NCBI GenBank assembly: GCA_030264375.1
Contig: JASCQW010000119.1
Span: 7,543,711-7,607,710, forward strand
Direction: 5' to 3'
Length of the DNA: 64,000 nucleotides
Origin: Carcharhinus longimanus
Taxonomy: Eukaryota
In this document: one piece after another, positions 6,436 to 56,666 of the stretch
Layout: each line of letters starts with the position of its first letter
Position numbering within the stretch: position 1 is the first letter of the stretch
Translations under genes and position numbers: made by a program
Notes under the pieces: generated by a model
Database searches by the model: none
Seen by the model: the letters and a program-made list of their open reading frames with translations, nothing else
Told to the model about the DNA's origin: nothing

Positions 6436-6456
6436 CTGTTACCAAGTGCAAGGAAG
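6436..6456 (+). CDS. 21-nt heptad micro-exon A1, (A)VTKCKE
   Basis: cctatgtcccatAG|CTGTTACCAAGTGCAAGGAAG|GTaaga; flanks resemble those of the exons at 38911, 41800 and 44317. Confidence 0.7.
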
Positions 6457-8613
6457 GTAAGAGAGCAGCAGATTGCTCCAATCTGACAATGGAGTTGCAG
6501 ACGCATAACTATGATGGACAGATTTTGCTGCAATGCACTCAAGCAACCTGAGGACACAGATGAAGGAATGGAGAATAATATTAGAAATGTTAGATGAAGA
6601 CATTGCGACAGTGTTGTGCAGCAGGATGTGCAATCATGCATGCACTGCACATAGATGCTTAGACAGCGAAACAACATTATTTGGAAGAGAGATGCGAACG
6701 AACACTCACTAATTGAGCCTCTTAAATATTTATGTAGTGAAACGTTATGGAAGATAATGGGTAGATATTTTCAAGGATCGAGCACTTCATAATTATAATC
6801 GATTAATTTAATAATAGGCGAAAATCGTTCGTGAACAGAGAAAGTTTTTTGAAACAATTTTTTCAAACCTTTGCGCACCTAATGTTTAAGAAATAATCGG
6901 ACCATTTTCATTTTCAAAATCAAAATCAATTAATGGTTCTATTAGTCGATGGTGAATTTATGGATCTTTTCTAAAAAAAAATCATATGCGACTGAATACA
7001 ATGCATTGGCTTAGGTGCGGGATATCAAAATGCCAGTCATGTGGCTTCAGCCGCTGTTATTGGATGGACAGTTCTCTTACGCAGGGCCATTACATGATTT
7101 GGGTAAAAATAACCCTCTAGTGAGAAGGAGAGGGACACTTATTTTGAACAAAAACACCAACGCAAAGATCCGAAAAAAAAAAATGATTATAAGATCTGCG
7201 AGACAGCATATAAATCATACCATTTAATTTGACTCTTAAGAATAAGGAATTATAAATGCAAAATGCATATTGAATCCATTCTGACCATCAATTTGTCTCC
7301 ATAATTTAAGCAAATCCTTGTTGATCTGATAATAATCTCAGATGTTTATGTTGCCTCCTTGGCAAACCGAGCACCCACTTCCTGATATAAAAAAAACAAA
7401 ACCGAGATATTCATCGTTATTTGCTTCCACGGCACTTTCAGGGAGACTGTTACAACGTTCTGCAAACAATGGAGAATTAAATATTATGCTGAATGCATTT
7501 TACTTGGATGATAGGTGTTTTCAATCTTTAACTTCTACTTCCAGGTTCTGCCCCAAAGGGAATCAATCCATGAATCCAATATGTGAATACCCCTAAGGGT
7601 ATTCAATCATTTGCACATTTTTTTTTTCGGGAAAAAAAAGCACGAATGATGCGTTACCATTTGATTCACTGATTCCTCTTTAAATTTTTAAACTTCCGGA
7701 CAATGGTCTCTGTCATTCATACATGGAATCGAAGGGAGATGCATAATTAAACTGTTCTAAATTTAACTCCACAGATGTTTCGAAGAGAGAATCCGGTCAG
7801 TGCATTTCCTCATTCGTCACTTCCAAGTGATTACGGTCACCTTTTTTTTGATATTTGAAAACATGCTGTGCATGGCTGCTCTTTAGACGCCTGCAGATTG
7901 GGAAGGATTGTAGAACAGTGTGATGACGCTTAGGTGTTCTGGCCATGTGAATTTGCCACATCGTGTCAGAGTGGATTCGCAGGGAAAATGCGTAACTTTG
8001 TGGGAATGGGACGGAGATTGGATCGTTATTGGTGCAGATAAAATGGGTCAAAAGGACTCCTCATGAATTGTAGGGGTTATAGTATCTTGGGGCGAATGCA
8101 CATCTTACCGGAAAACTTCCTTTAAAAAAATGCTGTCGACGTACAATGCTGTTTGTGTTTATTTTTTGCATGTGTGGAATGTCATTGTTCACTACCATTA
8201 GCCTTGTTTTTTGTTTCTAATTCGTCATAACATTTGCATAAACCTTCCAGGCTGCCGTCCGGATTTGAGTAAATGGTCTGTGCAAAATGTTATCCAAAAA
8301 AAAAACAGATTTCTTGAATGTTGATTGATTCATCTCCTTGACTTTAAAGCAACGTTTATGTTTCCCAATTTCCAATGTTCATCTCTGTAGCAACTCACTT
8401 TCAAATAAAGCAAATATTGGCAATTCACTTACTTGGGTACATCGACGGTTACCTTCAAACTGCGTCTTTGGCAGAAACATTGAATGAAGCGCTGGCATCT
8501 GATCCCACCATCCCGTGTTCAAATGTTTGAGTTACCGGTCAATAGTTTCTCTTATTTGTACCTGAAATCGAAATAAGATGCACCGTTTGATTATTCCTAT
8601 GTTAACTCGACAG

Positions 8614-8634
8614 AACTTGACTCTACAAAGAAAA
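8614..8634 (+). CDS. 21-nt heptad micro-exon A2, (E)LDSTKK
   Basis: ctcgacAG|AACTTGACTCTACAAAGAAAA|GTaagt. Confidence 0.75.
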
Positions 8635-8899
8635 GTAAGTGTATTGTTCCATTCGTCATTTCCTGATGATGAAAAGCTATTACTTTATAATGGCCGTTAG
8701 CACATTTTTGAGTGTTGCTGCTTAAAGTTTGTGACTAAACGGTGACATCATTCAGGCTGCACAATGTTTCTTTGTACGATTTACATTCTGTGCAATTGTA
8801 AAAAAAGCTTCCCAATGTTTATATCCCATTGAGTGTACAGCCACGTAAAATGCAATTCCAAGTAAATTGATCTAGCCGGGATCTAATCGTTTTGGTTAC

Positions 8900-9312
8900 A
8901 GATCATTTAACACTACAGTGCAGAAAGAGGCCCTTCGGCCCATCGAGTCTGTACTGAACACAATCCCACCCAGGCCCTACCTCTATAACCCTACATAATA
9001 TACCCACTAATCCACTCTAACCGATGCATCCCTGGACACTAAGGAACAATTTCTTAGCATGGTCAATCAACCTAACCCGCACATCTCCAGACTGTGGGAG
9101 GAAAACGGAGTACCCGGAGGAAACCACGTAGACACGAGGAGAATGCTCAAACTCCTCACAGACACTGACCCAAGCCGGGAATCGATCCGAGGAACCTGGA
9201 GCTGTGAAGCAGCAGTGATAACCACTATGATACCGTGCCGCCGACTACTGCGCTACCGTGCCGCCCACCACTGTGCTACCGAGCCGCCCACCACTGTGCT
9301 GCCGTACCGCCC
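8900..9312 (-). mobile_element. HE1-like tRNA SINE with CR1-derived tail and four-fold repeated 5' A-box segment
   Basis: gaggcccttcggcccatcgagtctg tail, ctgtgggaggaaa..cccggaggaaaccac core, B-box-like gggaatcgatcc; 23-bp unit x4 at 9221-9312. Confidence 0.85.
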
Positions 9313-10170
9313 GGCAGAGTATGGGTACCTGGACACGGAATTACTTATGCATTTGAAAGCTCTCCGGTATTTATCAATAAAACGAATATTCTCTTGTGAA
9401 TTAATTTTACCAAAAGAGATCAATTCACTTAAAAATATAAAATGCATCTGTCATATTTTCCTTTAAATAACGCAAACACTCCAACGGACTTCTCGTGCTC
9501 TCCGCAGAACATTAATTCGCACATAATTTTGTCTCAGCAGAATATACATTTTAAAATGCAATCGATAGGTTATAAGGGTGGCAAAGGTAGATGCAATATG
9601 ACGTGGTCGAAAAGGACGTTGTACTGAATAACTAAAGGTTGACTAGTATTGCAAATTCGGAGATTATTGAATAAGATCTTTCAGATAATGTTTTCGAATG
9701 CTGTTTTGATTGAGGTTTTTCATGTTTGGACGATAATGGTGGTCGAATATTTTCTGCATCGGCTCTTATATTCTAAGTATTTTAGCAAAACACTTTCAAA
9801 ATGCCCTCCCGATTTCAGAGAACGCTCGCAGTCCAATGCTTTCCAAAAAAAAACACGACAGATTGGTGTATTGCTTACTCAATCACCTGTTTGAAATTAA
9901 CACAGCGTTTTTGTGTTTTTCATGGTCACAGTCGTCGAACCTGTAACTTCTAAAATTCATATCAAACTGTCGGTAATTCAATTACCTGAATAGTTTGATG
10001 GGTGTCTGCAAATTTATTTATATTTTTCCTGAAACATTGAATGAAAAGCTGGCACCTGATTGCCCGATGCCTCCTCAAAAAGTTTGAATTTCCAGTCACT
10101 CAACTTTCTTGTTTTTGCATGAAATCGAAATGATTTATGATATTTAATTATTGCAATTTTATCCACACAG

Positions 10171-10191
10171 GTCTTACAAATACACAAAACG
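10171..10191 (+). CDS. 21-nt heptad micro-exon A3, (S/G)LTNTQN
   Basis: atccacacAG|GTCTTACAAATACACAAAACG|GTcagt. Confidence 0.7.
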
Positions 10192-11587
10192 GTCAGTGTA
10201 TTGCTCCATTCGCAATTTCCTCTTGATTACGGGCGAGATTTTGTGATGGTGAATAACATCTTTTGAATCGCTGCCGCTTATTGACCGTGACAAACCTGTG
10301 ACATTATCCCGCCTGCTCAACTTTTTCTTTTAAAAGAATGGACTATCTGTGCAACTCAAAGAAATGCTTTCCAAGTTGTATATCCCAACCCGCTTGCAAT
10401 CAAATTAAAAAAAAAAATGATTTCCCGGCACATTGATTTACTTCTGTATTAATATGTTTGGGTATAAATACCTAGTTACCCGGATTCTTATGAACCACAG
10501 CGCTCTGCATATTTCTCAATTCAAATAATATTTTGTTTGTTAATTCGTTACACCAAAAGCGGCGAAAATCAGATTTTCCCGCATCTTAACCACCTCATTT
10601 GTTTGCCAGCACGTTGACATATATAATTCGACTTGTGTTCTCGTCGGAACAATATTTTGCATCTAATTTTTTCTCAGCAAAAAAAATCTTCAAAAGACCC
10701 GTTTTAAGTTTCGGAATGGTAGATACAATATTATGTGTTTGAGAAGTATTTTGTATTGAATAACTGTGTTGACGAGTATTGTAGAGCAATGCGATTCAGA
10801 ACAAGTGCAGAGCTTATTGGATAACATATTTCAAACGATGTTGTCGGCATGTAGTGTTGATTGAGTTTTTTCTCGTATTTTTTGGACTGCAATGTTTGTC
10901 GATTCTCTTCACTATCCAGAATGATATAATCATAAACTCATAAGCACACTGACAAGTTACCGTCCCGAATTCGCCAAACACCGGCAGCCCAGTTCTTTTC
11001 AAAAATGTCAGAAAAGCAAAGAAGCATGCAATATTACTTCGTTGATGATAATTTGGATACTGCAACTTAAAATTAACAAGTATTTTAGAACAAAAACACA
11101 GAACGAACACAGAGCTTGTTGAACACCATCAAAAAACTGTGTCGACGTACAATGCTGAGCGATACATTTCGATTTCAGTGATTCATCTTACAATTCGATG
11201 TTGAACTTATCATGCATTTAACAAAATTCTTGCACTCGAATTCAGCAAACGTCCACTGCACATTGCATTCCAAAATGACAGCTCTCATTGATGTTTTCTG
11301 ATTGTGCTCCTTGATTTTAATTAACTTGCTCTGTATTTTTTTTTCTTCTTGATCTCAATGAGGGAATCTGCACAGTCTGAATTTTACATCAAAATTCGCA
11401 AATACAGTTGCGTAGACATTTGAGTGGTTATGCCGAAATTGCAGTTATTTTTCTGGAAACATTTCATGAAACGTTGCCCGATTTCTCGTCAAAATTGTTT
11501 TGATTCACCGACAGTCTTATTATTGGTACATTAAATCGCAGTGAGATTAAAAAAAAACTTTAGCGATTTCACTTGTAATCCCACAAG

Positions 11588-11609
11588 ACTTCACGATAAA
11601 AAAAACAAC
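11588..11609 (+). pseudogene. Decayed micro-exon at the equivalent position of unit 3
   Basis: cccacaAG|ACTTCACGATAAAAAAAACAAC|GTaacg: positional homolog, but 22 nt with a weak acceptor. Confidence 0.5.
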
Positions 11610-12705
11610 GTAACGTGTATTCACGTACAACCATTTGCATTTGATTTTGGCTTTTTTTTTGTGAATGACGGCTGCTGAAAGGTCGGACTAAACCTATTAT
11701 GTTAGGTAGCTTGACAAAGGTCATGCTGTCAGACTGTACAGCCTGTGCAACCGAAATAAAGAAAACAACATTTCCCAAATGTATATCCCATTTTGCTTGC
11801 AATTAAATAAATTACACCCTTTGAATTCCTGCAACTTGATCTTCAACAGGACCAACATCTTTGGAATTATGTAGTTGGGCACTGAGGCAAATATGAACCT
11901 CCGTCCTCTGCAGTATTTCTCAATTGAAATAATACTTTGTTTGTTAATTCGTTTCAATTGAGGGGGATACATTATCATTTGCCCACATTATATTAAATCT
12001 GTCATGTGTCTGCCGTTAACTTGTCACAATAATTGAAATTGTTTCTTGTCTTCCTGTCAGAAAATTAATTTGCACGTAATTTTCCTTCGACAAAAAAAGG
12101 CCAAATTGCAACTGATATTCTGTGAGCGCGTGAAACATCAATTCTATATTAATTGGTCGAGAGGTACTTTGAATACGATAACTTCAGATTGACAAAAGTC
12201 GCAATAGATTCAGATCAGTAATGAATGCAGAGCTAACTGATACCTCCCTTTCACAGGACGGTAAATGTATGCAGTGCAGACTGCGTGTTTGGACTGCAAT
12301 CATTGTCGACTGCCTTCAGTTTTGCTATCAGAATTATGATAAATTGAGTCATACCCTTCCAAGATTCCCATCGGTTTCAGGAAAAGCCCGCTTATAAAAA
12401 TATTGCACGATGACAAATTGTTATATTCTTTACATATTCACTACCGTATATTTAACGCACCATTTGTTTTCGTCATGCTGCCGCTGTTGTATCTGTAAGA
12501 GCTGAAGCATCGCTAAAAAAAAACTTACTTTAGCGTTTGATTGTCTTCAAATGCTGATTTTGGCAGAAACGCTGATGGGAGCGCTGGCATCTGATTGCCA
12601 GATTCATAGTCCAATTGTTTGAATTGACGGTCACTCTTCTCTCTTATTTATGCATGAAATCGAAGTTTGATGCAAAGTTTAACATATGCAATTTGAACCT
12701 CACAG

Positions 12706-12726
12706 AACTTAAGAAAACACAAAACG
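12706..12726 (+). CDS. 21-nt heptad micro-exon A4, (E)LKKTQN
   Basis: aacctcacAG|AACTTAAGAAAACACAAAACG|GTaggt. Confidence 0.75.
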
Positions 12727-14340: not shown

Positions 14341-14499
14341 CAAAAATAAAGAAATAACATATGTGGCAGCCATTTGCAGTGCAGGAGGAAGAGGAAATTG
14401 AAATGCATTTATTGTTTTGCTGGAGTCACATTGTCAAGCAATTCGTGATTGTTTAAAAGTGATTCCATGGAACTAGCTGAATCGAGATTTGCAGCATTT

Positions 14500-14591
14500 A
14501 AGAACATAAGAACATAAGAAGTAGGAGCAGGAGTAGGCCATCTAGCCCTTCGAGCTTGCCCCGCCATTCAATAAGATCATAGCTGATCTGA
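14500..14591 (-). mobile_element. Short young CR1 3' tail
   Basis: (agaacata)2 tail plus gagcaggagtaggccat..ccattcaataagatcat, nearly the same as 32800-32890. Confidence 0.85.
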
Positions 14592-15495
14592 TACTTTTAT
14601 TAGCTTGTCCAGGCTTTTTTCAACCATTGAAGAATGATCAAAGAGTTAGAATTTTTTCAAAGATTTCTTTAACACATTATAACTTCACACTATGGAGTTC
14701 ATTTGTTTGAGAAAGTGTATGGTGGATCAATGTATGTGGAAGTGCCAGAATTTGGCACAGGGGACACAAGAGGCCATGGGACATGTGGAAAATATGAGGT
14801 GGCATGGGTGCATTTGGAAGGGTAAGGGGGTTTGAGGGGTATGGGCTCCAGGACCTTTGTGTTTCTTTCTCTCTGGGAAAAAGTCCGTTGGCAGCAAGGC
14901 AGGCCTTTTAAACAGCCCGCCTCCATACCTGGCAGCCCCTATAGCTGCCTTCACACTCTGTCCCTGGTCGGTTGGCCAAATCCCAGCTAATGCCATCCAT
15001 AATTTAATCCACTGATGGAAAAGATCCATATGGACCAAAGTGCAGAAATGGATCACATGAGAAATCATGTTGAATAATGTAGCCAGCAGTGGCCAATTAC
15101 AGGGATAGAGATCTACTCAGGTGCATGATTCCAACAGCAGACCCAACACATGGATAAAGTGTGAATTAATGTTCAACTGAAACACTGAGTCAGGACTATT
15201 TACTGGAACTAAATTACAAATAGAATCAATGTACTTACATTTATGTAGGGCCGTGTTCACCTTCACAGTATGGGTGGTATTATACTCATTATAGAACCTG
15301 CCTGACTTTTATTCCAAGCTTTTCAGGGTCCTGTAACAGGCAGGTAATCTGCTCCAGATTTCCACTCATGTCCTGCAAACTTCAATTTATTCTGTAAAGT
15401 TTTATCACATTGTCAAATAATTACATAATATTTTGCAAAATGAGTGAATATTTCTAATTCTTCCAGTAATCTTCCTTTCACTTGAACATTTTCAG

Positions 15496-15792
15496 ATGGC
15501 CCCTATGATTTGATGGTGAAGTCTGAACCACGATTCAAAGTTAGTGAAGGAGTGTTCGCTGCTGGCAAAGGAGAACCCGTCTGGTTTAAATGTTCAGCAA
15601 ATTCCAACCCACCAAATGTCTATTCGTGGTTCCAGAAAGCTGACAACAAGACAACACCCATCCAGTGGGGGCCAGTGTTAAACATCAGGTCTGAGAAAGT
15701 ACCCGAGAAAGCCGACTACATGTGCTGTGTCTACAACAATATCACTGGCAAACGGGATGAGACTCAATTCACTTTCATACTCTCTGCTACAG
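15496..15792 (+). CDS. HEPACAM2: Internal Ig-domain exon (297 nt, phase 1-1), third Ig domain of HEPACAM family member 2
   Basis: ttttcAG|...|GTatgt; reads (Y)GPYDLMVKSEPRFKVSEGVFAAGKGEPVWFKCSANSNPPNVYSWFQKADNKTTPIQWGPVLNIRSEKVPEKADYMCCVYNNITGKRDETQFTFILSAT(G). Recognised against HEPACAM2 motifs YGPY, CSADSHPPNTYSW, SEKV and DYVCCAYNNITGRQDETHFT. Confidence 0.88.
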
Positions 15793-17299
15793 GTATGTAC
15801 AAGCTTGTTGATATTAACTTATTAATTGCAATGGTTTACAGATTATGTGATAATGGGTGTTCTTAAAAACAATTTGAATAGTCAAAAATAGAACATAACT
15901 TAAATTGCAGATTAATTAAAACTTAAGGTGATTTCAATTGATTCTATTGCTAATTATACATTGAATATGCTATCATTCTCAAATACACAATGGATTTATT
16001 TCATTGTGTGAATGAGGAATCTCCTGAGAATCATTATAGTTTTGCCTCAAGAAATGTTAACTCAAGACTTATTGGCAAATGAATGAATGATTGTGTGGCG
16101 AGGGTTATTGATCTTGCAGCCCAGGTACAAACAGTAAATCACTCTCTCTTACTGAGTGGGTCATTTTAGTTTTTTTAAATTTCAGTTGAGAAAGGGCAGA
16201 AGAGTAGGATGAGCTCCTACAGAGAACCAACAAGAACACAGCCATCTGAATGACCTCTTCCTGTGTGTAACAATCTATGATGCCATGATTAAACATATAA
16301 GGAACAAGAACCACATTTCTGTTTATGAATTTGCATTGTATTATGCTAAGATATCTTTTCTACATTATGAGCAGGATCCTGAGCCCACTCTTGCCATCTG
16401 CACGATTACCAACAGGGCTCGAAAGATGTCGTGGATCTCGCCAAGGAGATCACAACTTCTGATCTTCGCTGCCCCTCGCAACATAATCAGGCTCACATCA
16501 ACAATGGCTGTGAACCTGATTTAAATACATTTCCATAGATTTCAATATAATTAAACTGCTCCCTCGCCTTATATTGACACACTGCTGTAACATCATGTTG
16601 GCACCACTTATAAAAGATTCAGCCAGACATGGGTGGGCGCTGGCATTGACTGTGTGGGGGAGGATGGGGGAAGCAGAAGGGAGGTTTATTCATGTTCTGA
16701 TTGGGGTATCCTTTAAACATGGCATTACCACTATCAGTGCAGTCGGGCTTTGCTGGTGTGTTTCGGCCCCATCACTCTGCATGGCGGCGTGAAACTTGCC
16801 CACCTGTTTTTTTTTTTGACAGAGTGCAGTAAGACCTCAAGAGAAAATCGACCTATTTCGCTAGACAAAAACACACTATTTTTCTCACAAGAATCAATAC
16901 TCTGCCAACTTCTGGTAAGATTGCCTCCAATCTGTGAATTGCAGTACTGTTATATTTACAAATCTTCCCAGTAGGCCCAATTATTCTCCTGCATTCAATT
17001 TCCAAGAATCTAATTCCAACCTTGCAACGACTTACATGAAAAATTACATCACAGGAACAAGTCTCCTTTTGCCGACTGGCCCATGTTAATGTTTATGCTC
17101 CAAAAGCTTTTCCTCCCACCTTCATTCATCTCGCTCTCTATCAACATAGCCTTTTATTCCTGTCTCCCTCATATACTTACCCAGTTTCCCCTGGATTCCA
17201 GCACCGCTGATCACTTCAAACACTCCACGCAGCAGCGAGTCAGTGTTTGCATCATTCTCCTAAATTTCTTGCTGGATTTATTATTGGTTATTCTGACTG

Positions 17300-18050
17300 A
17301 GTGTGTGATCAAGGAACCCTGCAAAATAGCAGTCAATGAGAATCAATGGTAAAACCTTTCACAAGCTGGAGTCATACGCAGCACAAAGAAAGATAGGCAG
17401 TGCCCTCGGCCTGAACATCTTCAGCTACTTCATTGATGACCTTCCCTCCATCACAAGGTCAGAATTAAGACTGTTCACAGATTGCAGTCTGCAGTGCTAT
17501 TAACATTTCCTCAGACAATGAAGCAGTCCGTGTCCATATCCAGTGTGGTCTGCACTTTTGTGTTGGGCTGACAAGTGGTAAGTGACATGTGCATCACACA
17601 AATGCCAGGCAGTGACTATCTCCATCAAGAAAGAATTTAACCATCTCCTCGTGATGTTCAGTGGCATTGCCATTGTTGGTTTAAAAGTTAGTTAAAGTTT
17701 ATTTATTAGTCACAAGTAGGCTCACATTAACACTGTAATGAATTTACTGTAAAATTCTCCTAGTCACCACACTCTGGCACCTGTTCAGGTACATTGAAGG
17801 AGAACTTAGCATGGCCAATGCACCTAACCGGCATGTTTTTTGGGCTGTGGGAGGAAACCAAAGCACCCGGAGGAAACCCGTCAAAAGCCTGGGAGTTGCC
17901 ATTGACCAGAAACTTAACTGGACAAGTACAATTGACTATGGTTAGAAGAGCAGCTCAGAGGGTGGAAATTCTGCAGTGGAGAATTCTGCACCTTTTGATT
18001 CCCCGAATCCTTTCCATTATCTAGAAGGCACAAGACAGGAGTGTAATAGA
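17300..18050 (+). mobile_element. CR1/L2-group RT fragment with a nested SINE piece (~17683-17880)
   Basis: ggcagtgccctcggcctgaacatcttcagctacttcattgatgaccttccctcc (QGSVLGP.IFS.FI.DLPS); the nested piece has the ctgtgggaggaaacc..cccggaggaaaccc SINE core. Confidence 0.7.
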
Positions 18051-18056
18051 ATTGAA

Positions 18057-18406
18057 CCATAGATAATCATAGAATCCCTGTATTACAGAAGGAGGCCTTT
18101 ATGCCCATTGAGTCTGCACTGACTCAGCATCTTACCCTCTGCCCTATCCCCATAATCCCATGTATTTATACTGGCTAATACAACTAACCCACACATCCTG
18201 AGACACTAAGGGGCAATTTAGGATGGTCAATCCACTAACCTGCACATTTTTGGACTGTGGAAGGAATTGGGAGCACCCGGAGGAAATCCACCCAAACAGA
18301 GGGAGAATGTGCAAACACCACACAGACAGTCACCCAGGGTCAGAATCGAACCTGGGTCCTGATATTGTGAGGTTGCAGTGCTAACCACAATACCGCTGTG
18401 CCACCC
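18057..18406 (-). mobile_element. HE1-like SINE
   Basis: Same tail, core and B-box (aatcgaacctgg) layout as 8900-9312. Confidence 0.85.
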
Positions 18407-18871
18407 CTTTTGTCTTTTTTGTCGTACCAGACACTTGCCCCCATCTAAATGGTGATCATTGACATGCCCACTGCTCCAATGTCCACTCCCCCGCCCCACC
18501 AAAAATAAATGAGTCCTCTCCATGAGGCTCTCATTAGGGTCCTCCCCAACACTGCCCCGGAACAGGTTGGCACTGCCAGGTCGGATGCCAGCCTGGCAGT
18601 GCCAACTTGTGCTAATGGCAGTGCTGAGGCAGTGTCAGGGCCCTGCCTGGTCCTGTCCCTCTCCCCCAGGGACTATTTGTCCCTCTCCCTGGGGGTTAGG
18701 TCATACCTTGAGGAGAATACTCTCCATTTGCTTGGATAAATGCAGCTCCAACAACAGGCAAAAGGACTACATATTCTCAGACAAAACTCGAGGGATTGAG
18801 TTTAGGAGTCGGGAGATAATGCTGCAGCTGTATAAGACCCTGGTCAGACCCCACTTGGAGTACTGTGCTCA

Positions 18872-23200: not shown

Positions 23201-24908
23201 AATCGAGAACTCACCATTATCAGTTAGTATTCTGTTTTCATTTCCAATGCTTTGATAACTCCATAATGAAATAATACATTTCCAATGTGTTGCACTCATC
23301 ACAGTTGTAGCTCAGTGTTTCGTGTCAGAGATCCCCACAATGTCAGGGTTGTCGCCAAGGTTGAGTATTTAATTTCAGTTTGTGGCCATTTACTTCCAAA
23401 TGTTTTTCATTTCAAAACAAAATAAAAAACATATTCAGCATATTTCTCTTGCTCCATACAGAGGTGACAGCGTGCAAAAATGGAAAGGCATCTATATCCA
23501 GAATCTATTTTCATTTTGAGTGTGGAATGGGAGATTCTGAACGCTTGTAACAAAGGATCTATCTGAAATGTCCAACGTAGTTGTTGCATGTAAATTCATC
23601 TAATTCAGGTTATGCATTAGCCGTGACAAAAGAATTGAAATTCGCAGGCGTTATTAATAATCGGTGCAACGCTGCTCATTTTACAAATCAGTCACATGTT
23701 TAATGGACGAGAAGCAAAGAGTGCAAGCTTTGTTCAAAAACACACAGACGTGTCTGTTACGTTGCCTATTATCGAGTAAGATGAGTAAATTAGTCCACAG
23801 ATGTGCAACAAGGGATACAATGTGAACGCGAGAGACAAAGACCTAAGTGGATTCAATCGAACGTAGAAGAAACGGTAGCGAAACATATTGCAAAATCAAC
23901 AGATGAATGAGATCGAACAGACAATTTATATTGGTTAGAGAGGCAGAAAAGTAGCTGAATTCTGGGACAGAAATGTTTTCCGTCATCCCATACACGGGAG
24001 AGAGAGAGAGAAAGAGACGAAAGGAGTGAGTGAGGGAAATAATTACCAGAAAATGTCCGCCCGAATAATTCGAACGGTCAGCAGAAATATAATATTTTTT
24101 TTCTTGTGCTGTGTCTCGAGGTGATGCCAGTATTACGCTCAAACTCTATGTCGGCTTTCAAAGTATGCCCCGAGTAAAATTTCCGCACAGTTCTTTTTCA
24201 CGTGTCGTTGTTATTCAAGGGCGTAAATCCCTGAGTGTTTTCTTGGATTGGCATTACTGGCGTTGAAGGAACTTCCCTTATTTTAGTGCAACCTGTAAGG
24301 GATGGTCGAGACGCTTGGCCTCACGAAGTAACATGTATTGCTGTCATTTTGTCATGTGGGTTGAAATCATTTTTGCAACGAGCACGAAGACATCCCGGGC
24401 GAAACAGTGTCTTTTCATTTGTTTAATTTGTTTTTTATTTGGCATGTGGTTCGTGCAGGTTTTTGTGCGTTTATGCAAGAATCCAGCAATCATCAGGCCA
24501 AATCTTGCTTAACTCAATTCTGGCAAATTCTGTCTATTTATATGTGTATTCTTAAGAGTGCCTCTTCCGTAATAAATAGGTATTACTGCTATTCTGTGGA
24601 CAACATTTTATGAAATATATTCGCTGGCCAGGCCAGCCTGTCCATTCCACCTTGTCCATGAAAAGTTGTTGGTGATCTGCAATTTTGTACTGTTGAAGAC
24701 CCTGAGGTGCACACGCACAGAGATAGAAACGCGCGCGCGCACACGCACACACACACACACACATTTAAGGAATAAAACACGCACATTAAAATAATTTAGG
24801 GAATAGTAAAAAAAAAGCTCTTCCACCGTGAAAAACAGAAAACTGCTGACTAGCCACAATGTCCACGCTCGTCATAATCTTGCATACTTCTATCAGTACG
24901 CTCCCCCG

Positions 24909-36224: not shown

Positions 36225-36245
36225 ACTTGACAAAGTGCCAATCTG
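36225..36245 (+). CDS. 21-nt heptad micro-exon B1, (D)LTKCQS
   Basis: tttatgctccacAG|ACTTGACAAAGTGCCAATCTG|GTaggg. Confidence 0.8.
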
Positions 36246-37289
36246 GTAGGGATGACGTCGATTCATTTTGACTGTCGTATTGGTTTGGTCTGTTTTATTT
36301 TGGCACGTGTATTAATTGATTGCACCAAGCTCTTTTTTTCATCCTATGTGCCAATCAAAAGATGAAATGTACGTTATCAAACTGATGACTCACTCGAAAT
36401 TGATATTTTCAGTGGAAGGGTGAAAGATTAATGACATGTTTGCATTCAGACGTACAATCGGCCTCAGTTATAGCGCGTCGGCAGCGTGGCATACATACAC
36501 TTTATTAGAATTCCGTACTGCAAGTGATGCGAAAGGGATTCCAAAATAAAACATATGATCAGCAAATTGGGCTAAGGAAAACGGAAAGACGATACGATCT
36601 GAAATGGCATGAAAACAGCACATCAAAGCTTGTTAGTACACGAGGACAGGAGAGGCAATGTTATCGGGGCGTCTTGGTAGTGATAGTTTCTGTGCATGTG
36701 TTTGTTTGCCGGGGCACACAGACGGGAGCGGTGCATTTCAGGTGGAAGCAGAAGAGAGATCCTTTATTTTTGTAGTGGAGACATTTCTATAAACAAAAAA
36801 GGAGATACTAAAAGACAAACGTGGAGACATTCATAAGGAGACGACGAGATTTTTTTTTGTTACAAATCAAATATCACATACAACAAATGAATTACGAAAG
36901 GTAAAGACGTCAATGCCAATACCCATCGATATACAAGGGCGAGCAAATCGGAATCCAAACTACATTCATAGTGCTCATTTGAAATTGTATTAATATATAT
37001 CGATTTATCGAAAATCTGAACATGTGATGAAATTCAACTCCACATAAATTTGAGAATAGTAGCCGATCTATTTAAGCCACACTTCGCTCTGCACCTCTTA
37101 GTTCCCCTGAATCAACGAGACTTACGCAAATACCGAACTTGTTTAGTTTGTTTATGACTATCATAATTAACCTTAAAGAAACACTGCTAAGAATTGACTG
37201 TGGAACTTCAGGAGCCGCCTTGCTGCGGCGACTGTTCAGATATAATAGATAGAATAGAAATAGAATACAGCACGGCTGATTGCATTAAG

Positions 37290-38220
37290 AGCCCTGCCTC
37301 TTATGGCTGTTGACACAGAGATGAGTGGGAAAGCAAATTGGGTGGAGGACGCAGACTTGGATAGGCTGAGTGACTGGGCGAGGATCTGGCAGATGGAGTA
37401 TAATGTTGGCAAGTGTGACGTTATCCACTTTGGAATAAATAATAGTAAAATTGACTATTATTTAAGTGGTGATAAATTACAACATGCTACTGCGCAGAGG
37501 GACCTGGCGGTCTTTGTGCATGAATCACAAAAAAAAAAATCTCGGTTTGCAGGTGCAGCATGTGGTCAAGAAGGCAAACGGAATGTTGGCCTTTATCGCG
37601 ATGGGGATGGAGGATAAAAACAGGGAGGTCTTGCTGCAATTGTACAAGGTACTGGTGATGCCGCAACTAGAGTACTGTGTGCAATTTTGGTTCCCTTAAG
37701 GATATATTGGCCTTGGAGGGAGTGCAGAGAAAGTTCACCAGATTGATACCAGGGATGAGGGGATTAGCTTATGAGAAGACATTGAGTAGCTTGGCCCTGT
37801 ACTCGTTGGAGTTTCGAATGCTGAGGGGAGATCATATAGAGACATATAAGATAATGATGGGGCTAGACAGGGTAGAGGCAGAGATATTATTTCCACTTAG
37901 AAGGGAAACAATAACTAGAGCGCACAACCTCAAAACAAGGATGAATCAATTTAGACCAGATTTGAGGAGGAACTTCTTCTCTCAGAGGATAGTGAATCTT
38001 TGGAATTCTCTGCCCATAGAAGCAGTGGAGGCTACCACGTTATATGTGTTTAAGTCACAGGTATATAGATATCTGATCAAAAAGGGAATTAAGGGTTATG
38101 GGGGACAGGCGGGTATGTGGAACTGAAACACTATCAGATCAGCCATGATCTTATTGAATGGCGGGGCAGGTTCGAGCGCTGGATAGCCTACTGCTGCTCC
38201 TATTTCTGATGTTCTTATGT
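37290..38220 (+). mobile_element. 5'-truncated CR1 inserted in unit 1 of the array, splitting the old SINE
   Basis: ORFs 37303-38126 (DLDRLSDWARIWQMEYNVGKC, LEYCVQFW, RRNFFSQRIVNLWNSLP); absent from the paralogous site at ~41090. Confidence 0.93.
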
Positions 38221-38910
38221 TTTCAGATTGTGGGAGGAAACCAGTGTAGTCGGAGAGAACCCACGCAAACACAGGGAAGACTTGTAGGCTCCACAGGGAC
38301 AGTGAGCCAAGTCGGGAACTGAACGCTGTTACATTATATTTTGAGGATTTCACAGGAACTACTGTGCCAATGCGTGCCATGACCACATGTCTGAATGAAA
38401 ACAAAATCCAAACAGGTAATATACTTGTATCAGGTATCTTCTGCTTGTGCACTTATTGGTAATGCACAAGTACTCGAAAACTAGATCTCACTTTTGAACA
38501 TTGGAGAAGAATGCAATTACATTAACAAATTTACACCTGACTATTCAGTTGACCCGGAAAATACAATTGACATGATTACTCAATAATTGCAAAGTTGTGT
38601 TTTTCAATTTATAGATCTAAAAAGAGCATTTACAAGAACATATTGATCTAAAAAAAGCTCTTCAAAATGCAGTCTCTGAAATTGGAACACTACGTCCATT
38701 TTTCTATGACATTGTTTCCAATGAAGTCACTATAAATTATTCAATATAATAGTGACAAATTGGAGGCACAATAAACCAATTCTCCTTTATTTTTCAGTCG
38801 TTGTGTTAATGCTCAACCTTGGATTTACGTTTTATATTGTTGGGTATTGTTTGACAATAACAAAATGAAAAATATGTCGATGCTCACACGAGTGTTTCTA
38901 TGCTCCATAG

Positions 38911-38931
38911 AACTTGCAACACGCAATTCTG
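38911..38931 (+). CDS. 21-nt heptad micro-exon B2, (E)LATRNS
   Basis: tatgctccatAG|AACTTGCAACACGCAATTCTG|GTaagg. Confidence 0.8.
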
Positions 38932-39416
38932 GTAAGGAAGCAAACACAAAAATCCGACAACTGGATCTTGGGAGATATCAGTAGAGTTCATCGGACGTAT
39001 CAAGTGTTCTAATTGCCTGACAAGAAGGCACAAAGTGTTCGAACATCAGGCTGTTTGCAATGGACACTTCATTGTTGGCCCAGACGAATAGATTCTATTC
39101 CTGTATGTTTGTCGCAATTTGGCGCCTATGGGTTTCTCCAGAGATACAGAATAGGAACCTTTATTTTGACGTCTGAAAACCAAGCAAAATCCATCGAGAG
39201 ACTATATTAAAAAAGTAAATATGAGTACTTAATAATGTTCTGTTATCTAAATCGCTGACCTAATGGATGCTCAAAGAAGTTATACACCTTTTGACTATTT
39301 AACATGAAATTTGAGCTGTGTATTTCGTTTTAATGTATTTGTGCTGTTACTAATATTCCAAAAAAAAACCCAAAATCTGTTCTCTACCTTATACATATAT
39401 ATCTTATGCATCACAG

Positions 39417-39437
39417 ACCTGTCAAAGTGCAGAAACG
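39417..39437 (+). CDS. 21-nt heptad micro-exon B3, (D)LSKCRN
   Basis: gcatcacAG|ACCTGTCAAAGTGCAGAAACG|GTagga. Confidence 0.8.
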
Positions 39438-40212
39438 GTAGGAAATTACCAATCCATTGTGGAATATATTGATAATGACTGTGTCACTTTCGGAGAGATT
39501 GTACCTGAGTTACGAAAAATGCAATTTAATGTGTGTCTATATATATACTTAGTCTTTCAATTTCTTTACAAAGTTGTCATGCGTCATTGATGTACGTCTA
39601 AAAATTTCACTGAGAGCTGAACTGTTGAATACCGTTTTCATCGAGAATGTGAAAGGGTGAAAGAATGACTGATTGATAAGTGAGTTGTGGATCTTTAATA
39701 ATCAGAGAGACGAGTGTTTTTTATGCGTACGCAGTCTGAGATGTGAACGTGAAGTTTACGAACAAAGAACTACAAGTAAAGACACATTTTCAAGCTGGTA
39801 GAGATGACCTCGATTCATTTTGTCTGACGTATAGGTTTAGTCTTTCTTGTTATGGCATATGCGTTAATTGCACTGCGCCAAATATTTTTAATTTCCTATG
39901 TCTAAGCCGGAAGATGAAATGTACGTTCTCAAGCTGATGGCTCACTTTATTATTATTATTTTTATTGGAACGTTGAAAAACTAACAACATGTTTATATTC
40001 AGACTTCCAATGGACTTCAGTTATGGGGCGTTGGCACTGACATCCCATGTATTTTCTTAAAACTCTGCACTGCAAGTGATGCGAAAGCGAAAGTGATAAA
40101 AAATAAATATATGATCGGCAAATTGGGCTAAGGAAGACAGATAGATTACGTGATCTGAACTTGCATGTAAACAGCACATCAAAGCCGTTTAAATGCACGA
40201 GGACAAGAAAGA

Positions 40213-40547
40213 CAGTGTTACCAGGCTGTCATGATCGCGATAGTGCACGTGCATTTGTTCGTGTGGCGGGGCACACAGGCAGTTTTACCAGGATGTCTTG
40301 ATACCGATAGTGTGTGTGCATTTGTCTGTTTCGTGGGGCACACAGGCGGTGTTACCAGGATGTCTTGATAGCGATAGTGTGTGAGCATTTGCTTGGTTAG
40401 CGGGGCACATAGGCAGTGTTACCAGGATGCCTTGATAGCGATAGTGCGTGTGCATTTGTTTGTTTAGCGGGGCACACAAGCGGTGTTACCAGGATGTCTT
40501 GTTAGCGATAGTGTGTGAGCATTTGTTTGTTTAGCAGGGCACATAGG
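40213..40547. repeat. Minisatellite, 5 x 67 bp
   Basis: Units begin at 40213, 40280, 40347, 40414 and 40481 (c[a/g]gtgttaccaggatgtcttgatagcgatagtg...ggggcacacagg). Confidence 0.95.
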
Positions 40548-41799
40548 CGGTAACGGGGATTTTGGAAGAAATAGAGAGACCTCTAGTTTTTTTTTTATTT
40601 GTAGCGGGGAAATTTCTATGCACAGGCAAGAAGCCACTGACAGACAACGGTGGAGACATTCATAGTGAAATGACGAGAGTATTTATCACAAATCAAACCT
40701 CATATACGGCAAATTAATTATGAAAGTTAAAGACTTCAATGCTATTACATATTGATATTGGGAGGCTGAGAAAATAGGAATTCAACAGACATTCAAAGCC
40801 GCTCATTTGCCTTTTATTAATATTTATGCGAGCGAAAATCTGAACATGTGATGAAGTTCAACTCTACGTACATTTGAAAGTAATAACACATCCATTTAAG
40901 CCACACTTCGCTCTGCACCTCTCTGTATTCTTGAATCAACGCGACGTACTCCAATAGCGATCTAGTTTAGTTTATTTATCACTCTCACGATTAACCTTAA
41001 ATGAACACTGTTGTGAATTGACTGTGGAACTCCACGAGCCGCCTTACTGCGGCGACTGTTCAGATATAATAAATGAGAATAGAACACGGTCATTGGAATT
41101 TAGAAGCACGCCTTTCAGGTCGTAGGTGGAAACCAGTGCAGCCGAAGTGAACACATGCAAACACAGGAAGGACTTGCAGGCTCAACAAGGGCAGGTGAGC
41201 CAAGTCGGGAATTAAACACAGTTGCATAGCATTTTGAGTCTTCCACACGTAATACTGTGCCACTGTGCGGCATGAGCTTACGCCTGAATGAAAAAAAATC
41301 AAATATGTAATATATTTGTATCATTTATCTTGCACCTGTGCACTTATTGAAAATGCACAAGTTCTCGAAATCTCGACATCACTTTTGAAAATTAGATGAA
41401 AAAGCGAATAAATTAACATAGCTACTCCTAACTGTTCAGTTCACCATTAAAACATGATTGACATGATTACTAAATATTGGTTAAGTTGTGTTTTTTTTTA
41501 CCGTTATTGGATCGGAAAACAGCATTGCCAAGAACATATTGAAATAGAAAAAAAAACTTCAAAAATCAAACTCTGAAAGTTGGAACACAACGTTTTTTTT
41601 TCCTGTCGCTTTGATTGCAATGAACTCACTCTAAATTATTCAGTATAATCGTGACACATTGGAGGCATAATAAAGCAATTTTCCTTTACTTTCCAGTTAT
41701 TTTCCCAATGCCGAACCTTGGATTTACATTTTATGTTGCTGGGTGCTCTTTGACTATAAAGCATGTAGATTCTCACACAAATCTTCTCATGTTCCATAG

Positions 41800-41820
41800 A
41801 ACTTACATCATGCAACAAAG
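41800..41820 (+). CDS. 21-nt heptad micro-exon B4, (E)LTSCNK
   Basis: catgttccatAG|AACTTACATCATGCAACAAAG|GTaagg. Confidence 0.8.
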
Positions 41821-42298
41821 GTAAGGAAGCAAAACAAAAATCCAATAACTGAGTCTCGGGCGAAATTAGGAGAGTACGAACGGTCGTGACAAGTTCTCTT
41901 ACTGCCTGGAAATAAGGCACAGAGTGTTGGATCAGCAGGCTGTTTGCAATGGACTCTTCAGTCTTGGCTTCGAAGGAGAGATTCTATTTATCATTGTTTG
42001 GTGCAGTTTGGCGCCTACGCGTGTCTGCACAGATACAAAATAGGTACCTTTATTTTGACGTATGAAAACCAGTAATCATCCATAGTGAGACTGTAAGAAA
42101 ACGAATACTAAATAATGTCCTGCAATCTAAATCGCGGACCGAAAGAATGGTCAAAGAAATCATACACATTTTGAATATTTAATTCGAAAATTGACTGTTT
42201 TATTATCTCTTTTTATTCTTCTGGGGCTATTGTTAATATTCCTAAGAAAACTGAATCTGTTCACGACGCTGACTATGTATATATTTTGTGCATGACAG

Positions 42299-42319
42299 AC
42301 CTGGCAAAGTGCAAAAGTG
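42299..42319 (+). CDS. 21-nt heptad micro-exon B5, (D)LAKCKS
   Basis: gtgcatgacAG|ACCTGGCAAAGTGCAAAAGTG|GTaaga. Confidence 0.8.
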
Positions 42320-44316
42320 GTAAGAAATACAGAGTCCATTATGGAAGCGACTGTGTCATTTTCGGAAAGTTTATTCCTGAGTTATGCCGAATATATATGT
42401 ATTTAATGTTATAAATTTAATAATTGGCAGGGCATCAATGGCTTTACCGAAGTTGTCATTCGTCATTGATGCAAATCTAAATGTTGCACGGAGAGTTGAA
42501 CAACGTTTTCATCCAGAATGCCAAAGATTGAAAGAATGACTGATTGCTAAGTGAGTTGTGGAACGTTGATAGTCAGAGGGACGAGTGCTTTCTTTACTGC
42601 GTGCACAGTTTGAGATACGAACGTCAAGATTACAAACAAAGAATTGCAAACAAAGACTCAGGGCCAAGCTGATAGAAATGATCCAGATTCATTTGTACTG
42701 TTTTCCCCCGTTCCATTGTGGCTTATGGACTTAGTGTATTATGCAAAAAAACCCATAATATATACTATATATATATTCTACCTGTATGTCAAACTATGAA
42801 AGGTATATTATCAAACCGATGTCTCACTCTAAATTGCAATTCGTCAAACCGTTAAATGTAGAGCTAAGTGCCGTTTTCACTCGGAGGATGGAAGATTGAT
42901 ACACATGTCTGCATTCAGATTTACAATTAACCTCAATAATGACGTGTTGGCAGATTCACTTTCTTCAGCCTCTATATTGCCACCGATGGGAAAGTGAACT
43001 TGATACACAGACACGGGCAAATGCAGAGGGAGAGACAGAGTGCTATCCGAAAAAGAGTTTTGATCAATGATGATGTGTGCACATTGGTATGTATGACAAT
43101 GTGCGTGGGTAGTGCTGAGGCTGCTAAATTGGAAACATTTTGTGGAAACATTTTGTAATGGACTCAACAAGCGATTGACACGTAATTGTGGAGAGAGAGA
43201 GACAGTGAGAAGGCGATCGCGTTCGTTACAAATCAAAAATTAGATACATCAATTGAATTACCAAAGGTAAAGAATTTTAAAGCATTACCCATCGACATAC
43301 TGAGTGTGAACAATGGGAATCCAGCAACCGTTCAAAGCTGTTCATTTGCCATCTATCGAATATTTAGAAATATAGAACAGAGAACCTGAACATGTTCTAA
43401 AATGCAATGCGTCCGAAATTTGAGACTAATTCTCTAGCCATTTAAGCCACAATTCACCCTGTACATCAAGACATTCTCCAATACTGATCCTTTTTTTTTA
43501 ACTGTCATAATTAAACATAAAATAACACAGGAGTGCAGTGACTGTGGAACTCCCCTGATCAGCTTATACCGACGCCTGATCTAACGACATGAGGGAGAAT
43601 GGAGGACGGCCAATGGATTTAACTAGCACATGTTTCCGACTGCGGGAGAAGTCAGAACAGCTGGAGGAAACCCACGCAAACACGGGGAGAACATGCAGAC
43701 TGCGGATGGACAGTAAGCAAAGTCATGAATTCAACCTGGCACCCTGGCACAGTGAGGCAGTCATCCTAACTACTATGCAACTGTGCATTCTTAGCATCTT
43801 TTTGAAAGGTAAAAGAAAGAATCCAGAGACACAATACATTTATATCCTCTTTACTGACCTTGAATATTTATTATTACAGAACACGATCCCAAAAATAACT
43901 CGACCTTTTTTTGAACTTTCGATGAGAAATATATTAATTTGATAAATTTTCTCCTGACCGTCCAGTCCATCTGTAAAAAAAAAATGGTTTAATCCCCAAT
44001 ATTGGTGCTTTTTTTCCCCGTTATTGCACCCCAGAACAACAATATCAAGAACGTATCGAAATCAAAATTGCTTCAAGTTGGCAACGCTACATGCATTATT
44101 CTGTTGCTTTATTTTCATTGAAATCGTTATACATGACGCAACATATAGGTGCTCAATTCGACGCATCATCAAACTGTGTGAATCTTTGTAATGTACTTTC
44201 CAGTTTCTTCGTCAATGTCCAACCCTGGATGCCTGATTCTCAGTGTTGGACGTGTTTTTATCTGACAAAATAGAATATATGCAGATATTCACAAGTCTTT
44301 CCTTGTACCCTCACAG

Positions 44317-44337
44317 ATCTAGCAAAGTGCAACAGTG
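44317..44337 (+). CDS. 21-nt heptad micro-exon B6, (D)LAKCNS
   Basis: gtaccctcacAG|ATCTAGCAAAGTGCAACAGTG|GTaagg. Confidence 0.82.
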
Positions 44338-44810
44338 GTAAGGAATCACTGATAGGGAAATAGATAACCGGATATTGGAAGAAATAGTAGAAGTCGATTG
44401 GGGATGACAAGTGTCCTTACCGACTGGCATCAAGGCTCATTGGCACGAGAAGCAGAGTGTTGGAGCAGCAGGTTTTTGACAATGGGCTTCTTCATTATCG
44501 GCCTGGGCGAACAAATGCAGCATCCTTGACGACTCGAGGTCACACCAAAGCTAGAGAATAGATACCTTTAGCCCGAGGCATGAAACCAAGGCACATGCAT
44601 GGAGAGGCAAAAAAAAACGAGTACTTAATAAAATCTTGCAATCTAAATCTCTTACCTAATGAAAATTCAACGAAAATGCTCGAATTTTAGCGACCTATCA
44701 TCAAATTCGAGTTTATCAATTTCTCTTCACTGCAATTGGGCTCTGATTAATGTTCCTAACAAAACAGAATGGGTTCATTGTACTGATTGGATGTATCTTA
44801 AGACTCACAG

Positions 44811-44831
44811 TGCTGGCAAAGTGCAACAATG
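44811..44831 (+). CDS. 21-nt heptad micro-exon B7, (V)LAKCNN
   Basis: agactcacAG|TGCTGGCAAAGTGCAACAATG|GTaggg. Confidence 0.78.
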
Positions 44832-46269
44832 GTAGGGAACAAGTAATTCAGTATAGATTATGTTGATAGAATTATTTCAGTAAAGATATATTGATACCTT
44901 ATATTGACAGAGAGTTTTAAAAACGTTTCTTCTTAAATTATGCAAACTATTTTTGAATGTCTGTATGTAAAAAAAAAACAGAGTATCAAATTGATGGCTC
45001 AAGCGAAGTTGACATTCCTTATTACTATAACGTTCTTCGGCGAGTTGAATGTCATTTTCATTGAAAACGCGAAAGGTTGAATGAATGCCTGATTTCAACA
45101 CTTCAATGTAGATGAGTTGTGGATCTATAATAGCTTGAGAGACGAGTATTTATTTTTTAATCCGTGCACAGCATAAGATGTTAGGTTGGTTGCAGACGAA
45201 GAAAAGAACATATTGAAGAAATGAGCTTCATAAAGGGGAAGGAGATTATCATTTCGTAATGGCAGACTCCCTAGGGTCTTAAAAAGAGATAACAATAAGG
45301 ACATTAAGGTGTAAAATGCCTCAGATAAAGATAAGCTGTATGTTTGTGTGTACTTGTTTTCAAGTGGTTGGGAAGCGTACGGTAGTGGCAAAGGTACAAT
45401 GTCAGAAATGTAGGAAATAGGTTAGAACAGGAGAGAGAACTGTACAATCTATGAATCAAAGAAATAAATAGACACGTAACCTATAGCTGCCCACAGTTGT
45501 GGAGGTCAATGCATATAGAGAGATAACTACCATGTTCATCAGATAGCAAGCCGCTGATACAATGAAATGATGCGTTAATATTTATAATTAGGCACAAAGA
45601 ATGATTGTAGGAATACTTATACAAGTTTGAACATCGCATGTTGTTAACTGTCAGATGGTGAGCAGAAAATTCATAACTGTAGGATGAAATATCTATTTGT
45701 TTTAAAATGGCAATGAATTCCTTGAACATGTACTCAACTTCAATGTCTACGCAAATGAAATGGAAATTGTTCACCCATTTAACCTACAATTCTCTGTAGC
45801 TCTTTCTACTATAAAAGGCAGGAGGCATGTTCCTTTCCAGATTACCTTCCATCAGGGGAGAAACAGAATTTTCAGATACGCAAAGTGTGTGTTCTGTTGT
45901 CACGAGATGGAACTCACCTGAGTTACCTCCAAAACATCTCAAAAATCTATTCTCACCTTTTGGCAAGCTAATTGAGAAACAATATTCCATAAATGCTGCT
46001 GCTTGTTAAGATTCATTCAAACAGCCATAACTTTGGCTTAGTTATTAAACACTGCTGCAATTTAATGAGATCTCAAAAAAAATTAGAAAAAATTAAATTT
46101 TCCTGAGGAAATCACAGCCGCCTTCATTATTTTACGCCCACTTCTTGTTTTCCCCTCTCCGTTCATTTTCTTTGCCGAAGAATTCACGACAAACAATACG
46201 ATCCCATCATTGTGAAAGCGGATGCATTTTCAACCATGAGTAATAGAAATTTACTCCTGTCTTATCCAT

Positions 46270-49200: not shown

Positions 49201-49750
49201 CCTCAGAAATGTCCCCTTTCAGGACAGCTGTGATATCCTCCCGAAGCAGCAATGCAACTCATCTCCCTTTCTTACCTTTTGTTCAATATTTCCTGGAACA
49301 TCAATGGCTGGAAGTTTATTCATCCACGCCCTGAGTTGATTTGCCTTGTCCTGCAGGACTCCTGCAATGAAATGCATTTCATTTAATCAACACTTCCCTG
49401 ACTCTTCACCTACATTTTCCTAAAGTGCCTAATGTCGGATTGCTGCTCTGACCTCTAATGTTAAACCTGCACTTTTCAACTTCCATGTTGTCCTCAGCAT
49501 TTCCTTCTGTCTCCTTATTGCTTTGTCTCCTAAAACTTCACCAAGCTATGTTAAACCTTCAGATTCGCAAGTGGAAATCTCCCTACCTGGTTTTTAGCCG
49601 TCCTTGTATTTAAATGTCACCCGTCCCTCTTGAGCATGTCTCAGAAGAGGTGTCAATGATCAACACATTTATGTATCTGTCCCGAGAACCAGCTCTCAGG
49701 CTACGCATTCATCTGCATAATCGCCATACGCCTACTGTGGCAGTAATCCA
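46270..49750 (-). mobile_element. Long degraded CR1 (3' UTR back to the ORF1/ORF2 junction)
   Basis: Antisense CR1 text throughout, e.g. ORF 46755-46979 LRSESQVDRVVK; endonuclease region at 48900-49300. Confidence 0.75.
48200..48657 (-). mobile_element. Penelope-like element 3' fragment (GIY-YIG C-terminus plus pseudo-LTR) nested in CR1
   Basis: Minus strand reads DLRVHSHQSGVHGTQQRSIPEKKLIARFYRHEDGRNWDLGFMSRYL*; terminal aagtccaacaggtttatttgg and atgccggcattggactggg motifs. Confidence 0.8.
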
Positions 49751-56645: not shown

Positions 56646-56666
56646 ACCTGAAGAAGCGCACCGATG
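56646..56666 (+). CDS. 21-nt heptad micro-exon C1, (D)LKKRTD
   Basis: tttccaccacctAG|ACCTGAAGAAGCGCACCGATG|GTaagg. Confidence 0.75.

Follow-up and report, generated by a model that had tools for sequence, protein, structure and literature searches.

Small exons of the block and of the surrounding run

Between 6.4 and 12.7 kb of the DNA studied here, a 64,000-nucleotide stretch from Carcharhinus longimanus (C119:7543711-7607710, C119 being contig JASCQW010000119.1), lies a block of very small exons, each predicted to add one heptad to a coiled coil. The whole stretch is called the window, and positions without a contig name are counted from its first letter. We examined a further 350 kb upstream and 250 kb downstream, and we describe the block (the array A region), the assembly around it and the candidate micro-exon gene to which it may belong; the splicing of the exons and the function of the gene are read from the DNA sequence only.

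An earlier note, made from the letters of the window, had placed four exons on the plus strand, at 6436..6456, 8614..8634, 10171..10191 and 12706..12726. All four were found there: 21 nt long, bounded by AG and GT, phase 1 on both sides and open. Codon 5 also reads as it had been given, TGC (Cys) in 6436 (VTKCKE) and ACA (Thr) in 8614 (LDSTKK), 10171 (LTNTQN) and 12706 (LKKTQN). Leave-one-out position-matrix scores, in order of position, are 27.4, 8.0, 23.6 and 37.1 bits, 8614 being the lowest of the four, with a background of 3.0 bits for the best minus-strand site in the window and 0.5 bits for the best plus-strand site outside the array. The matrix scan added an intact 21-nt phase-1 exon that the note had overlooked, at 7775..7795 on the plus strand (VSKRES, Arg at codon 5), which scores 20.6 bits though it lies outside the training set. 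A flank profile of the A-type units with the exon masked found one more unit at 11401-11791 (E 8.2e-17); it holds a decayed plus-strand exon, 11588..11609, of 22 nt, with an AAG acceptor and about 18 nt of its native donor region deleted.

The local array is composed of five A-type units (7775, 8614, 10171, 11588 and 12706) at spacings of 839, 1557, 1417 and 1118 bp. The 1557-bp spacing contains about 0.4 kb of inserted repeat, an interspersed repeat plus a 23-bp tandem array within the 8614 unit (8900..9330, no strand), and comes to about 1140 bp without it. The unit length of 1.1-1.5 kb proposed for the Thr exons is borne out when 11588 is counted.

The block lies within one same-strand, same-phase run of about 55 small exons covering at least 540 kb. 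Between -137493 and +201502 an iterated matrix places 34 intact exons of 21 nt, while 38 sites on the plus strand outscore the best one on the minus strand. High-scoring symmetric phase-1 exons are 21 nt long in 32 of 42 cases on the plus strand versus 0 of 9 on the minus strand over 464 kb, and in 42 of 69 versus 0 of 22 over 664 kb; the splice models were trained on the same exons, so that these scores are partly circular, but the contrast in strand and length is large. Small coiled-coil-like exons over the 664 kb number 34 on the plus strand and 1 on the minus strand. Past both ends of the 21-nt block, exons of 27, 36 and 18 nt extend the run to -232750 and +308415. Since the 36-nt exons at 218395 and 254887 begin like a 21-nt Cys heptad, their starts suggest that the exon sizes of the run may share one origin. 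The absence of stop codons from the 34 joined exons (0 versus 14.5 in shuffles) was discounted as partly circular, exons with internal stops having been filtered out beforehand. Of 22 runs, no RNA run was listed as containing the sequence, which speaks neither for nor against expression.

Small exons of 18, 27 and 36 nt were seen at +218 to +308 kb and at -233 to -212 kb, among them three near-identical Lys/Glu-rich exons of 18 nt at +265922, +268891 and +269819. Near-identical short contigs with 77-base overlaps occupy +209844 to +213630, which suggests a collapsed tandem repeat within the gene.

Inside the window, the run continues as array B (36225..58259, plus strand), nine 21-nt phase-1 exons starting at 36225, 38911, 39417, 41800, 42299, 44317, 44811, 56646 and 58239, which we read as the continuation of the same gene. 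Exon 6436 is related to these. The note had likened its flanks to the 38911/41800/44317 class, and an exon-masked profile recovers that likeness (E 1.7e-6 over 464 kb), single pairwise flank comparisons being unconvincing alone (best p 0.007 among 94 tests). A tree built from 19 exon-plus-flank sequences sets the six A-type rows on one side of a 100/99 branch and 6436 with the B-type rows, in agreement with the claim that the Thr exons derive from a cassette other than that of array B.

The two lineages are interleaved. The A-type profile finds an exon at -15508 (E 5.7e-9), about 22 kb upstream of 6436, and the contig that carries the A units also holds the B-type exon 6436, with no gap in it. 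A B-like remnant with a dead donor (GA in place of GT) was found by matrix and profile at 23462..23482 on the plus strand, and dead exons elsewhere in the run lie at 76976, 126447 and -85899. The cassette order along the run is A (-15508), B (6436), five A, B-like (23462) and B. Because of this order, and because no B30.2 (PRY-SPRY) exon intervenes, one gene with interleaved cassettes is favoured. The note's "second, independent array" is not supported: 6436 and the upstream A-type exon both speak against it, and exons of the same strand and phase extend hundreds of kb to either side, no terminal B30.2 exon lying between them.

Codon 5 varies over the 34 exons, with 14 Cys, 6 Thr and 5 Arg; codon 2 is mostly Leu (25, against 4 Val) and codon 4 mostly Lys (23). 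Where the note spoke of Thr replacing Cys, the wording goes too far, TGC and ACA differing at all three bases and the exon at -15508 also carrying ACA. Since this distant A-type exon has ACA too, Thr is native to the A cassette and did not enter by a recent change in a B copy.

The HEPACAM2 fragment between arrays A and B

The segment at 14499..18871 (plus strand) is foreign to the locus and in all probability misassembled, most likely belonging in a gap of 4910 N in HEPACAM2 on contig C132. It contains the exon for the third immunoglobulin (Ig) domain of HEPACAM2 (15496..15792, plus strand), no part of the micro-exon gene; its identity is 96-97% with two proteins of sharks, 93-94% with those of rays and 74% with that of chimaera. 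The remaining HEPACAM2 lies at 65.71-65.79 Mb of C132 and is without just this exon, and the gap is in the relevant intron (C132:65,744,678-65,749,587). The 77 bases before the gap are exactly window 14499-14575, and the sequence to their left is unrelated. Exact 77-base overlaps also link three other contig pairs in the region, which is consistent with the assembler's overlap length. The CpG observed/expected ratio is 0.06-0.41 across 14.5-19 kb, as on C132 (0.06-0.38), and mostly 0.6-1.2 on both sides. A long interspersed element (LINE) at 18972 fits as the continuation of the LINE end at 14499; the 35-bp overlap of the contig ends 33044/18972 also occurs in another LINE copy and is uninformative on order.

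The exon at 15.5 kb was considered as an ectodomain of the micro-exon gene and rejected, since it is HEPACAM2 (90-97% to elasmobranch proteins) and fills the exon lacking on C132. The suspicion of displacement by scaffolding voiced in the note was well placed as regards the assembly; the displaced piece is this fragment downstream, and not array A. Most likely, the block looks separate from array B because of the wrongly assembled piece of an unrelated gene alongside. The case is also a warning: the assembly shifts repeat-bounded fragments between chromosomes, by which HEPACAM2 has lost an exon and an unrelated gene has gained a false Ig domain.

At C160:17.44 Mb, a CpG-rich piece (L080:3600-7858), about 70% identical to window 33-43 kb and with two 21-nt exons, sits in CpG-poor DNA near an unrelated coding exon and ends at a 100-N gap. 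It is probably a second misplaced fragment, from a paralog.

B30.2 exons and the cartilaginous-fish coiled-coil proteins

Six divergent B30.2 exons lie on C119, at 6.33 (-), 8.53 (+), 9.02 (+), 9.09 (-), 10.68 (+) and 11.29 (+) Mb. A word-based search with the B30.2 exon returned 118 distant proteins of TRIM or butyrophilin (BTN) type and missed the close group, which a full HMMER search with the 8.53 Mb exon reached: cartilaginous-fish models that combine a coiled coil with the same B30.2 domain. These are Callorhinchus XP_042192744 (P0183, named "nuclear-pore anchor-like"), Scyliorhinus XP_038672308 and XP_038668997, Narcine XP_069775385, Leucoraja XP_055510696 and Hemiscyllium XP_060706632; the names are automatic similarity labels, and the comparison is one of proteins, each being at most a candidate ortholog. 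In a tree of 38 selected domains, the six C119 domains and the shark, ray and chimaera models form one group (100/99, midpoint root only) apart from the BTN and TRIM rows, and a Hemiscyllium model not labelled beforehand as a member also falls in it. A literature search covering few subscription journals found no description of this gene or of the B30.2 group, nor does the available text of PMC13749957 and PMC11788884 describe the group.

The chimaera model P0183 is the closest counterpart of the exon run, the motif common to both being a rod with [ED]LxxC heptads. It has 11 such motifs versus a mean of 0.42 in shuffles (maximum 3 of 200) and the top heptad-profile score among 285 proteins, and the six places that it matches best in the genome are precisely the B30.2 exons of C119. 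A search among shorter proteins for relatives of its residues 330-850 gave none (0 of 7998 scored), and in the ESM Atlas residues 380-680 met generic coiled coils only (best 0.87). A two-copy model of residues 392-500 is an in-register homodimer in which Leu occupies a and the Cys residues of the two chains face each other at d. Its score is 0.46 versus 0.00 for the best of 3 controls, with contact agreement of at least 98% and a predicted local distance difference test score (pLDDT) of at least 84; among reference cases, 17 of 29 eukaryotic pairs attained the dimer score mark and none of 30 single chains did. This model concerns the relative and not the window's protein, and may merely reproduce solved coiled coils known to the predictor.

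Phase-1 exons of small size (18-36 nt) occur on both sides of the 21-nt block and also ahead of the B30.2 exons at 8.53, 6.33 and 9.09 Mb; before the 8.53 Mb exon, at a distance of 5-11 kb, they measure 27, 24 and 36 nt, and one agrees with a catshark model in 8 of 9 residues. Between -350 and +314 kb, the search met no local-type B30.2 exon. The nearest on the same strand is that at C119:8.53 Mb, window +985 kb and about 680 kb past the last exon of the run, and all three arrays on C119 have a same-strand B30.2 exon 0.7-0.85 Mb downstream. The micro-exon gene is likely to belong to the cartilaginous-fish coiled-coil plus B30.2 family, and there is about an even chance that the run joins the exon at 8.53 Mb. 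Between the array and this B30.2 exon, at C119:8.27 Mb (+, L097:147-539), stands an open reading frame (ORF) with repeats resembling IQ motifs, possibly a processed pseudogene.

Searches for other domains returned little. In 325 ORFs, Pfam matched retroelement domains and one borderline viral-family entry only, and between -350 and +314 kb it found neither B30.2 nor Ig, the HEPACAM2 exon aside, nor any other domain except retroelement ones. This exon is the sole Ig exon met: none was found in 208 plus-strand ORFs of at least 88 aa, nor among the 117 ORFs left after filtering in the outer 200 kb, with gaps remaining. Exon scans, again with gaps remaining, yielded no convincing transmembrane exon before the heptads. 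Pfam Ig or RING families occur in 0 of the 6 family models scanned; RING or B-box was found neither in these six nor in the scanned ORFs of the region, where the gene start did not turn up. A C-type lectin head gave 0 of 48 matches on C119, and a V-set head was absent from the region among the 150 of 928 candidates that were scored, a weak test. A segment of 19 residues above 1.6 mean hydropathy occurs in 0 of 9 family models; a short hydrophobic N-terminal stretch occurs in 3 of 9, versus 0 of 92 RING-type controls, and N-glycosylation sequons are not enriched (17 of 116 Asn versus 273 of 1995). The note's word "tail", for a cytoplasmic part behind a transmembrane segment, finds no such exon in our scans.

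The proposed gene and its alternatives

On balance, we favour the reading that the 6.4-12.7 kb block is an internal, locally expanded segment of one giant cartilaginous-fish coiled-coil gene, and the exons of arrays A and B are likely to be joined in one transcript. The earlier interpretation was sound on the different cassette and in its doubt about the assembly; the independence of the array, its place in a tail and the displacement of array A find no support here. In the mechanism that we propose, symmetric phase-1 exons, mostly of 21 nt with 18, 27 and 36 nt at both ends, would build a long parallel coiled-coil rod, and any of them could be duplicated, lost or skipped in frame, a 21-nt exon being one heptad. 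Such frame-neutral gain and loss, with 21 nt keeping the heptad register, is an established principle and is described for chicken BG in the available text of PMC5938342. Unequal crossing-over would have copied an exon-plus-intron cassette of 0.8-1.4 kb five times, one copy being dead by now. Leu at codon 2 would take core position a and Cys at codon 5 core position d, and the A cassette, with Thr or Arg at d, would contribute four heptads with no possible interchain cysteine link. A dimeric rod of variable length, with neither Ig nor RING, would then present a fast-evolving B30.2 binding domain.

Several observations weigh against this proposal. Arrays A and B are connected only across one misjoin and three gaps of unknown size, and scans for a start exon gave nothing convincing. 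The read-through of the 34 joined exons matched neither P0183 nor any family model significantly by phmmer. Between the run and the 8.53 Mb B30.2 exon, ten 8-kb samples did not exceed the background, with 7 plus-strand and 5 minus-strand weak candidates, a 50 kb control holding 5, and one 36-nt exon alone scored strongly (18.5). Splice-site retention gives 0.052 when tested on the five local A units alone. Exon identity among the A duplicates is 0.29-0.76 versus 0.60-0.72 for introns, with no third-position excess, and purifying selection on A-unit residues is not evident.

These last figures bear on the possibility that the A units are mostly skipped or dead pseudo-exons that arose when an intron underwent neutral tandem duplication. 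Exons have diverged no less than introns, codon positions 1 and 2 change as often as position 3, one of the five local units is dead and there are dead exons elsewhere in the run. However, 5 of the 6 A-type units keep AG, GT, the exact 21 nt and an open frame despite 30-40% flank divergence (for AG and GT, the rough neutral expectation is 0.008), and codon 2 of the four intact local units is Leu in three and Val in one. Splice sites kept while coding bases diverge like introns fit diversifying selection or weak residue constraint, and we consider it improbable that most A units are idle. It is somewhat less improbable, though still unlikely, that the array A contig comes from a same-family paralog mis-scaffolded here, or that A and B are tandem paralogs with their boundary in a gap. 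The assembly demonstrably misjoins DNA at 14499, paralogous B-type pieces of 65-81% identity exist on C160 and on unplaced contigs, and C119 bears two other arrays, at 7.14 Mb (-) and 9.80 Mb (+). Set against this, a further contig, connected through gaps of known size, has an A-type exon 22 kb upstream, strand and phase agree, and the LINE at 18972 fits as the continuation of a LINE end at 14499. The A-unit sequence at 8400-8900 has just three matches in the genome, all inside the window.

The design invites comparison with the BG genes of chicken, which, in the available text of PMC4046983 and PMC5938342, have 13-36 exons of 21 nt per gene, varying in number by duplication, and place IgV and transmembrane exons before a cytoplasmic tail without B30.2. 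The present gene shares with them the many phase-1 exons of 21 nt, the split first codon and the heptads. It is therefore conceivable that the run encodes the cytoplasmic tail of a membrane protein of BG or butyrophilin type, its Ig and transmembrane exons being hidden in gaps (N makes up about 11% of the 464 kb) or situated beyond -350 kb, where the upstream DNA examined ends. We give this little credence, as neither kind of exon was found in the region scans and the family models hold no Pfam Ig or RING domain (0/6) and no 19-residue hydrophobic segment above 1.6 (0/9). Moreover, the core here is at codons 2 and 5 with frequent Cys, in contrast to codons 4 and 7 as described in the part of PMC5938342 consulted, and the exons are spread over hundreds of kb. 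Butyrophilins, in which the available text of PMC4046983 places heptad repeats before B30.2, combine few heptads with Ig and transmembrane parts, unlike the at least 34 intact heptad exons here, and their B30.2 domains fall outside the cartilaginous-fish group. The gene is built like a BG tail but is not filed as BG, BTN or TRIM.

Enterophilin also combines heptads with B30.2 and has no Ig. The bovine "enterocytin-like" protein P0250 has the same domain order as the present group (heptads and B30.2, no Ig), but its B30.2 groups with mammalian butyrophilins (100/99), for which reason its layout would be a separate origin of the same arrangement. Schistosome micro-exon genes have symmetric micro-exons and frame-preserving skipping, and are unrelated to the present gene in sequence and lineage. 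Among the cartilaginous-fish models, expansion of a 21-nt cassette is described only for the present gene.

A bolder version, which we hold to be doubtful, supposes one gene of about 1.2 Mb whose frame-symmetric micro-exons, roughly 100 in number, encode a secreted rod, stapled by disulfides between the chains at d and bearing a B30.2 binding head specific to cartilaginous fishes. Gain, loss and skipping of one-heptad cassettes under diversifying selection would set the length of the rod and the spacing of its cross-links, and in the Thr block we would see a recently expanded, flexible segment without such links. We entertain it because of the hydrophobic N termini in 3 of 9 models, the Cys-facing-Cys dimer model and the fast exon divergence; the lack of sequon excess and of a start exon speaks against it.

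If the giant-gene reading is true, there is in cartilaginous fishes a cluster of B30.2 genes, very large and poorly annotated, that assemble their rods from exons of one heptad each, as is otherwise known from the tails of chicken BG, though in another register and without the membrane receptor part. The locus is a detailed record of cassette birth and death, with two old lineages, interleaved, in living and dead copies, and it makes the evolution of rod length testable.

Finally, pattern searches found the same exon type elsewhere in the genome: at C119:7.14 Mb (-) and 9.79-9.83 Mb (+), where two more arrays of Leu/Cys heptad exons, again of 21 nt, occupy the same arm of the chromosome, on C160 and on several unplaced contigs. 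The latter, 63-81% identical to the locus in several cases, are paralogs and not alleles. A generic 21-nt pattern gave 11 matches versus 15 in the control and is uninformative. On unplaced C9584, C15192, C68428, C4366, C5497, C11505, C68460 and C68701 there are 15 further sites of the family that resemble 21-nt exons, the splice sites being broken in some of them. On another chromosome, at C137:48.14 Mb (-), a 21-nt exon resembling a Cys heptad lies 58 kb upstream of a same-strand SPRY match. The window also holds an inverted repeat of 467 bp with 94% identity (25772-26902), and a minus-strand fragment (L053:115-486) matches the retroviral envelope family PF00429 (E 2.3e-9).

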